From Escherichia coli (GTDB taxonomy: Bacteria > Pseudomonadota > Gammaproteobacteria > Enterobacterales > Enterobacteriaceae): a DNA stretch of 64,000 nt. Shown here in pieces: positions 61,888-62,784 of this stretch. The notes under the pieces were generated by a model. That model had not been told where the DNA came from. It worked only from the letters and a program-made list of their open reading frames with translations, and ran no database searches. How positions within the stretch are numbered: the first letter of the stretch is position 1; every line of letters starts with the position of its first letter. Where the stretch lies: NCBI RefSeq assembly GCF_003334785.1, contig NZ_QOWV01000001.1; one strand, given 5' to 3'. A program made the translations under genes and the position numbers.

Positions 61888-62784
61888 TCACTTAAGAGGA
61901 GCGGCACTATGTTTCACAGGATAACGGGTTTTTGATATCTTAACCGACCTCGGCCTTGATGGTCGGGGGCGTTTTGTTATGAACACCACTTCCAGAGCAC
62001 CCCGAAGATGCTCCAGTCGTTTCGGGATGGTCCCTGGTGACGCCGTGTTTCCCAGCTCTATCATTTCTGATGCGATATTCTTCCACGCAGGCAGTAGCCA
62101 GTGGCGGTTACAACCCTTCTGGTTCAGCGTCAGCAGCAGGTCTTCGCTGTAAAAAAGTTTATCAAACAACGTAATAGAGTTATCCGGGATGGTGGCGAGC
62201 ATGGAGTGGGCCAGCACAGTTTCGCTCTGCCGGTAAGGTGCGGTCACGGCATTCAGCAGAATGTGACTTCCCAGGTTCATTAAGGCCACCAGACGCATAA
62301 CCGGGTAGGCGTTCTGCCGCTTAGTGGATGTGTTGGCAGACCCATAATATTCACGCAGCTCGGGTTTATCAGGTGTCCTGAACTGTGCGCCATCAATGGC
62401 AAAAAGTTGCAGGCCGTGCCAGTCATCCTTCAGGTAACGTTCCGCGCCCCTGTCTGTGCGGTCTGGCGGAAGAGCCATTCCACTGGGGCGGCCCCCACGC
62501 GCTGACGCGCCTGGGTGACAGCGCTGCGGGCCAGCAGGTTCATCCCCGCTTCGCCATCCGCGCTCAGGTTCAGACGGCGAACAACATCGGTAATTGGCTC
62601 ATTGCACCACCATCCAGATAACCATGTCCCCCGGTAAACGACGGCGGCGAACGGTCGCATGAGCAGAAAGCGTCAGGCAGTGTTGTATCCACTCGGTGGG
62701 AAGGTGTTCTGCAAATAGTTGTGCAGAGGGCGGAGGCATAAGCGGATGGTCACTGAAATCGAGCAGATCATTGAGAAGTGGCAT
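61888..62784 (-). pseudogene. insZ: IS4-family (DDE) transposase remnant, broken by frameshifts
   Basis: Three overlapping minus-strand ORFs in different frames (61888..62478, 62430..62660, 62599..62784) with transposase-like sequence; total length 897 bp matches the remnant I recall next to adhE in K-12. Confidence 0.6.

Follow-up and report, generated by a model that had tools for sequence, protein, structure and literature searches.

Insertion sequences of the IS4 subgroup carry one transposase ORF that has no programmed frameshift; its product is a DDE enzyme in which the catalytic residues are spaced as D(60-110)D(100-150)E and a Y(2)R(3)E(6)K signature is present. The ends of these elements follow the consensus -AATR--------WTW and they duplicate 10-13 bp of the target (De Palmenaer et al. 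2008, PMC2266710). Escherichia coli K-12 carries IS4 itself (insG) and one copy of an element described as 'IS4-like' and called ISZ; in mutation-accumulation lines the intact IS4 still transposed (8 events), whereas 0 transpositions and 0 recombinations were recorded for ISZ, which is deleted and frameshifted (PMC5009759). The pseudogene name insZ is used in another study (PMC3465305), and neither of the latter two papers describes the ends of ISZ, its target duplication, its insertion into the adhE terminator or the Term-seq end discussed below.

We analyzed a window of 64,000 nucleotides of E. coli DNA (the whole stretch, to which all positions refer unless stated otherwise), in which an earlier note had seen a frameshifted IS4-like transposase remnant between tdk and adhE. 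The region is ISZ with its pseudogene insZ, and thus a feature that is already catalogued and annotated in K-12, and ISZ is a non-autonomous relic of an IS4-subgroup insertion sequence. It is close to certain that what we see is a dead ISZ relic in the loop of the adhE terminator, and we regard the account as a whole, namely an ISZ relic inserted into the adhE terminator and followed by a terminator substitution in K-12, as very probably correct. What is added to the literature we found is modest and consists of the insertion into the adhE loop, the recurrent IS4-type hits at this place and the assignment of an orphan 3' end to an element-borne terminator that serves adhE.

The insZ pseudogene and its full-length relative

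In the ORF list of the window, three overlapping minus-strand ORFs in three different frames together span 61888-62784 (897 bp), exactly as had been claimed: ORF A (62599-62784, 61 aa), ORF B (62430-62660, 76 aa) and ORF C (61888-62478, 196 aa). Translated searches bore out their description as an IS4-like transposase remnant, as ORF C and ORF B match the NCBIfam model NF033592 (IS4 family transposase) with E=2.9e-23 and E=2.7e-7, respectively; these E-values are significant, and the scores of 82.5 and 30 bits stay below the cut-off of 115, as expected for fragments. ORF A gave no NCBIfam match, and a comparison of the translations by eye showed that it agrees with an intact IS4-family transposase of 445 aa over residues 1-60, with 1 mismatch. 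The PGAP/RefSeq annotation of K-12-type genomes agrees with this and places the label 'IS4 family transposase, frameshifted' on exactly 61888-62784 of the minus strand. That the ORFs opened by chance and do not descend from a transposase is ruled out by the two E-values; against it also stand the 94.6% nucleotide identity to an intact insertion sequence and the terminal repeats and target duplication that lie exactly at the boundaries of the empty site, both of which are described below. The local gene order is hns (minus strand), tdk (plus strand, stop at 61606), the relic and adhE (minus strand, stop codon at 62908-62910), the 3' part of adhE filling 62908-64000 and its 5' end lying beyond the window, and the site given between tdk and adhE is therefore correct. 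The window is of the K-12 type; positions 61607-62907 are 100% identical to K-12 derivatives, for example EPI300 and AML003, and the feature is the same as the ISZ/insZ of K-12, which has the same position between tdk and adhE and the same label as an IS4-like, single-copy element that never transposed.

A full-length relative of 1430 bp is found on E. coli plasmids (locus L002, 2501-3930, from NZ_CP062837; also on the pO103-type plasmid NC_013354) and encodes a single 445-aa ORF, the transposase WP_029488891.1, with the Pfam domains Nterm_IS4 (residues 21-112) and DDE_Tnp_1 and a score of 263.2 bits against NF033592 (cut-off 115). Its catalytic residues are D137, D214 and E318 with spacers of 76 and 103 residues, E318 being located inside YHSRWEIEVGFRNLK (residues 311-325). 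As the protein shares only 39.5% identity with InsG of IS4, the element represents a separate IS species of the IS4 subgroup. Full-length copies are present in about 164 of the 5426 complete E. coli genomes and also on conjugative E. coli plasmids. The plasmid element resembles the K-12 relic in its identical terminal repeats, in its leader hairpin and in a nucleotide identity of 94.6% over 989 aligned bases, and it differs from it in being intact, with its full 1430 bp, its 445-aa ORF, all three catalytic residues and fresh 10-11-bp duplications. A second ISZ-like relic, which has decayed independently and shows different deletions (L017, 1524-2296; L018, 1257-2014), adjoins nanM and a sialate O-acetylesterase pseudogene in STEC-type and other strains.

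Compared to the 1430-bp relative, the K-12 copy has suffered three deletions of 441 bp in total. The largest is an in-frame deletion of 423 bp, the junction of which lies at about 62064-62077 (minus strand); it took place between two copies of the direct repeat TTTCTGyCGCGATA that the full-length element contains. About residues 245-386 are lost with it, among them the catalytic E318 and those of the YREK motif. Alignment to the full-length copy placed a 1-bp deletion at 62450-62451, which causes the frameshift between ORF B and ORF C, and a 17-bp deletion at 62604-62605, which causes that between ORF A and ORF B (both on the minus strand). These two deletions account for the three-frame pattern, and the frame breaks in insZ are lesions and not programmed frameshift sites, the relative having one ORF. 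The full-length relative shows the complete DDE-YREK signature of the subgroup and the K-12 copy retains both aspartates without E318 and YREK, so its assignment to this group of transposases is by ancestry and not by present sequence. Similarly, subgroup members are 1400-1650 bp long, a range that includes the relative with its 1430 bp and not the K-12 copy, which measures 989 bp because 441 bp are deleted. The K-12 ISZ is a truncated derivative and not an intact member of the IS4 subgroup, and it departs from the subgroup in length, intact ORF and DDE-YREK signature only because of its deletions.

Between the K-12 and the plasmid copy we counted 50 coding substitutions, 35 of them synonymous and 15 non-synonymous, with 33 at third codon positions. 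As this divergence is mostly synonymous, little of it is post-inactivation decay and most predates the inactivation. The earlier description of the insertion as old and decaying is fair insofar as the same deleted form, the K-12-type relic, is found in 1884 of the 5426 genomes, but the 'decaying' half of it has to be qualified by the little divergence acquired since inactivation.

Ends of the element and the split adhE terminator

The boundaries of the element were set by aligning the uninterrupted 301-bp tdk-adhE spacer of other E. coli (L004) to the window. The alignment contains a 10-bp overlap, CCCAGAAGGG, that is matched by both flanks and fixes the element at 61879-62867 (minus strand); together with the alignment to the full-length plasmid copy this identifies a complete ISZ relic of 989 bp, which is an internally deleted copy of a 1430-bp insertion sequence. 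The overlap is the target-site duplication and is present as a direct repeat on the left at 61869-61878 and on the right at 62868-62877, corresponding to positions 262-271 of the empty site. Terminal inverted repeats of 18 bp with 16/18 identical positions delimit the element: the left one at the 3' end of the transposase gene (61879-61896) reads CAATGCCGTTCACTTAAG and is the same as nucleotides 1-18 of the full-length copy, and the right one at the 5' end of the transposase gene (62850-62867) reads CAATGCCGATCAGTTAAG as reverse complement and is likewise identical to the full-length copy. Both ends carry AATG at positions 2-5 and TTA at positions 14-16 in line with the consensus of the subgroup, and the duplications, 10 bp in K-12 and 10-11 bp in four other ISZ-like copies, lie within the range of 10-13 bp given for it. 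The terminal inverted repeats that the earlier note could not see are therefore present. A 41-nt inverted repeat (61856-61896 and 62850-62890) was also considered as one long terminal repeat and rejected, because it is composed of the 18-bp element ends, the two halves of a palindromic terminator and the duplicated loop.

This palindromic terminator is that of adhE. The empty site has the sequence AAAAAAACGGCCCCAGAAGGGGCCGTTT and contains the native adhE terminator hairpin AAACGGCCCCUUCUGGGGCCGUUUUUUU, a 10-bp stem followed by U7 that starts 23 nt after the adhE stop codon and for which a 62-nt fragment is predicted to fold with -25.4 kcal/mol (z = -3.75). The insertion point of ISZ is the loop of this intrinsic terminator, and the insertion destroyed the native adhE terminator in K-12. 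Its adhE-proximal half (62868-62890, minus strand) consists of the 5' arm and the loop with no U-tract after it, and in K-12 the predicted fold of this fragment is not more stable than that of shuffled sequence (z = +0.48). The distal half (61856-61878, minus strand), which has the 3' arm and a U-tract broken by an A, is now separated from the proximal half by about 1 kb, and the Term-seq table of Adams et al. 2021 contains no 3' end at this place. The interruption corresponds to an extra T at 61863 in the distal A-tract of K-12 (AAAAAATACGG versus AAAAAAACGG in the empty-site allele), which breaks the U-tract on the adhE strand and represents either decay of the unused half terminator or an older polymorphism.

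The relic lies between two convergent 3' ends, as adhE (minus strand) and tdk (plus strand) are both transcribed toward it. It had been placed just upstream of adhE and credited with a possible promoter effect on this gene; with adhE on the minus strand and its stop at 62908, the relic is located 3' of both adhE and tdk, from where a promoter contribution to adhE is impossible and the relevant effect is on termination. The neighbouring tdk gene has its own intrinsic terminator that is separate from the element (61620-61660, plus strand; predicted fold -20.8 kcal/mol, z = -4.0), with the hairpin ACUGACAGGGUGAG...CCUGUCAGU followed by UCGUUUU (within 61610-61670). The Term-seq 3' end at MG1655 1294198(+), which equals window position 61660, is found at this terminator and is also classed as 'orphan'. 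About 195 bp (61661-61855) between the tdk and the former adhE terminator have no annotated feature and no Rfam match, and they show about 99% identity in genomes without the element.

The leader hairpin and the adhE transcript

The leader of insZ contains a terminator-like site on the minus strand (62782-62815) made up of a hairpin (62815-62790) and a U-tract before the insZ AUG (62784-62782). Of the 10 base pairs in the stem of the hairpin 6 are GC, the loop measures 6 nt and the tail reads UUUUCUUAUG, and the leader is predicted to fold with -35.7 kcal/mol (z = -6.07); a GC-rich stem-loop is directly followed by a U-tract, as is typical for an intrinsic terminator. The Term-seq data for MG1655 list a 3' end of the class 'orphan' at 1295324(-) with on average 53,801 reads in LB at OD 0.4, 51,499 in LB at OD 2.0 and 100,225 in M63 glucose (Adams et al. 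2021, PMC7815308, supplementary file 1). The 61-mer given in this table matches 62776-62836 (minus strand) of the window exactly and therefore converts MG1655 1295324 to window position 62786. This position lies in the U-tract, with the adhE stop codon 122 nt upstream and the insZ AUG 2 nt downstream, so that an in vivo 3' end falls into the U-tract of the 62815-62790 hairpin under all three growth conditions. The same table (PMC7815308) lists no further 3' end between 62786 and the end of the tdk terminator at 61660, and on the minus strand from the adhE stop to the hairpin no promoter-like site was seen.

From these data we infer that the adhE mRNA of K-12 probably ends at the element-borne hairpin, which would have substituted for the native terminator. 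Intrinsic termination of the adhE mRNA is the most likely origin of the end at 62786, an assignment to be read with the facts that the Term-seq authors class this end as 'orphan' and that no read in the accessible data joins it to the adhE ORF. If the ISZ hairpin ends the adhE transcript in K-12, the 3' UTR would be about 122 nt long instead of about 50 nt, and the insertion would have been nearly neutral because the hairpin terminates adhE. By analogy to other insertion sequences, the hairpin presumably evolved as a barrier against expression of the transposase from transcripts that enter the element. An Rfam scan of 60300-63000 at a permissive threshold gave nothing beyond a sub-threshold match of the leader hairpin to ctRNA_p42d (62781-62817, minus strand; 33.4 bits versus a gathering score of 50, E=6e-5), which we rejected as it probably reflects a generic resemblance between hairpins with a U-tract and not a ctRNA.

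Alternatively, the end at 62786 might be a processing product or belong to a short transcript that starts in the right end of the element, adhE itself then ending elsewhere or by Rho. Besides the 'orphan' class, the leader motif TTGACC could be taken as a hint in this direction, since it is common to ISZ and IS4 and in IS4 is part of the promoter-like sequence TTGACC-16-AAGAAT. A transcript from such a putative internal promoter would start in the 5' arm of the hairpin, however, and could not form it. The end is located in a U-tract that directly follows a GC-rich stem of 10 bp, as in the classical geometry of an intrinsic terminator. The very high read counts are consistent with an abundant mRNA such as that of adhE, for which no alternative 3' end is listed downstream, and we therefore consider an origin other than adhE unlikely. 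Another question is whether the product of one of the ORFs could have been domesticated, for example as an N-terminal DNA-binding fragment that acts as an inhibitor or regulator of transposition. About 60 N-terminal residues are almost unchanged in ORF A, the Nterm_IS4 domain of the full-length protein comprises residues 21-112, and the microarray signal of insZ rose together with that of its neighbours on PhoB activation (PMC3465305). Nevertheless, just 2 nt separate the AUG from a strong transcript end upstream of it, a promoter for insZ was not identified, the frame is broken twice within the N-terminal domain, the catalytic glutamate is deleted and many lineages live without the element (2200 empty sites), so that domestication is hardly credible.

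Somewhat less far-fetched, yet still improbable and below the chance we give to a 62786 end of other origin, is that the relic behaves as a MITE-like element, non-autonomous but mobilisable in trans by a full-length ISZ transposase as encoded on the pO103-type plasmid. Over 18-20 nt neither of its terminal repeats differs from that of the full-length copy, and the full-length copies occur, as described above, on conjugative plasmids and in a small part of the genomes. The 1884 carriers, on the other hand, have a median of 1 place per genome and no second locus was seen to hold a copy with this 423-bp deletion, the remaining chromosomal ISZ-like relics differ from it in their deletions, and the transposases of Tn5 and IS10, which belong to the same family, act strongly in cis, which counts against mobilisation in trans. 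The 0 transpositions in the mutation-accumulation lines point the same way, though K-12 is without a transposase source (PMC5009759). We treat ISZ in K-12 as a dead relic whose hairpin probably serves adhE.

Target choice, history and comparison with related elements

While the K-12-type relic occupies the site in the genomes counted above, 2200 of the 5426 genomes have an uninterrupted adhE terminator, for example O157:H7, and the spacer of strain 042 is uninterrupted as well. The remaining genomes, about 1340 of 5426, mostly carry another relic in the same loop; this number is an estimate by subtraction, as a count by coverage threshold failed because IS4 copies elsewhere also pass 80% coverage. 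The other relic is a deleted and frameshifted genuine IS4 of 1145 bp with the 12-bp duplication CCCCAGAAGGGG (L003, 1772-2916; L006, 2773-3917), and its carriers include the B2-type strains ATCC 11775, Nissle and O25:H4, among others. Furthermore, CUVET21-147 has an intact IS4 of 1426 bp in the same loop (L005, 2773-4198) with the duplication CCCCAGAAGGGG and flanks identical to an empty-site allele. Judged from these alleles, there have been at least two and probably three independent insertions of IS4-subgroup elements into the adhE terminator loop, and the loop is an insertion hot spot. In NZ_CM136176.1 (1428448-1430814) the tdk-adhE interval with the K-12-type relic has itself been cut by an IS903B-like element of the IS5 family, and the match lies in two pieces spanning 2367 bp.

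To look at the targets in general, we reconstructed seven independent IS4 sites, namely adhE, the K-12 insG site, the glgP 3' end, the bamD-raiA spacer, one within fiu, one within an IS66 gene and one more. The IS4 duplications of 11-14 bp are centred on the apex of a predicted hairpin in six of the seven sites, the arms resemble AAAAACG...CGTTTT, and five of the seven have the shape of an intrinsic terminator. At five ISZ-like sites the 10-11-bp duplications overlap short dyads of the CCC...GGG type, and among the four of these that were folded the duplication falls on a predicted hairpin loop in three. Read by eye, these seven IS4 and five ISZ-like sites suggest that IS4-subgroup elements prefer dyad-symmetric targets consisting of an A-tract, a hairpin and a T-tract, and such a preference would explain why genuine IS4 is found in the same adhE loop of other lineages. 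It also agrees with the consensus AAA-N20-TTT for IS4 targets.

As to its history, an ancestor that was still full-length (about 1430 bp) very probably jumped into the loop of the rho-independent adhE terminator and duplicated 10 bp of it; that it had a single 445-aa DDE transposase and moved by cut-and-paste is concluded from its family membership. The K-12 copy then lost 423 bp between short direct repeats, and with them the catalytic glutamate and YREK, and with its frameshifting deletions of 17 bp and 1 bp it is unable to make transposase.

For the annotation little is at stake, as insZ is a catalogued pseudogene. K-12 is, however, the reference for work on adhE and for metabolic engineering, and its adhE 3' UTR and terminator are not ancestral and probably consist partly of IS DNA. 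Cross-strain comparisons of adhE expression and edits of the tdk-adhE spacer should therefore heed the polymorphism between empty site, ISZ relic and IS4 relic. An 'orphan' Term-seq 3' end of MG1655 gains a simple assignment, and the locus offers a natural example of the target choice of IS4-type elements, with a dyad flanked by A and T arms, as well as an example of how an anti-read-through hairpin of an insertion sequence appears to have been co-opted as a host terminator.

Among the described systems close to ISZ is IS4 (insG), the type element of the subgroup. Its architecture is that of ISZ in the full-length form, with one ORF for a transposase of about 445 aa that has Nterm_IS4 and DDE/YREK and a length of about 1.43 kb; the two also have similar 18-bp ends (TAATGCC.. 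versus CAATGCC..) and duplications of 10-14 bp, and also the type of target including the adhE terminator loop itself. Both elements have a hairpin and a U-tract just before the start codon, in IS4 a hairpin with U7 directly before the AUG, and the leader motif GTTGACCGATCC is conserved between ISZ (62824-62858, minus strand) and IS4 (L003, 2865-2892, minus strand) despite the protein identity of 39.5%. The promoter-like sequence of IS4 has a TG extension and its predicted start lies inside the 5' arm of the hairpin. It is plausible that in this design transcripts from outside form the hairpin and terminate, and that the element's own transcript does not; for the leader hairpin of IS4 (insG), no Term-seq end is listed in the table of PMC7815308. 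At its other end IS4 has an inward-facing terminator-like hairpin, GCCAGTCAGTTAAGCAACTGACTGGC followed by TCTTTTT (L003, 1776-1801, plus strand), which overlaps the left terminal repeat, and in ISZ a weaker inward hairpin is found in the 3' end of the transposase gene (61948-61968, plus strand). Both ends of ISZ and IS4 may block incoming transcription. Whether these elements home to the loops of intrinsic terminators and, each equipped with an inward-facing terminator, leave the interrupted host gene terminated is in our view an even bet. If true, this would amount to a 'safe-harbour with replacement part' strategy in which insertions are nearly neutral, and it would account for the repeated independent hits at the terminator of adhE as well as for the dead relics that persist in about 60% of the sequenced E. 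coli.

Protection against transcription from outside is found in other insertion sequences too, as the end hairpin of IS200 and the read-through protection of IS10 and IS50 show, where a structured element end shields the transposase gene. IS200, IS10 and IS50 thus resemble ISZ in having a structured end that blocks outside transcription, although they belong to different families or subgroups. A dyad-symmetric extragenic target like that of ISZ has been described for IS1397/ISKpn1 and ISRm22, but these elements are from different families or subgroups and insert into REP elements (PMC1525189). In contrast to such REP-targeting insertion sequences, ISZ has hit a functional intrinsic terminator, and its own hairpin seems to have taken over the termination of the host gene.
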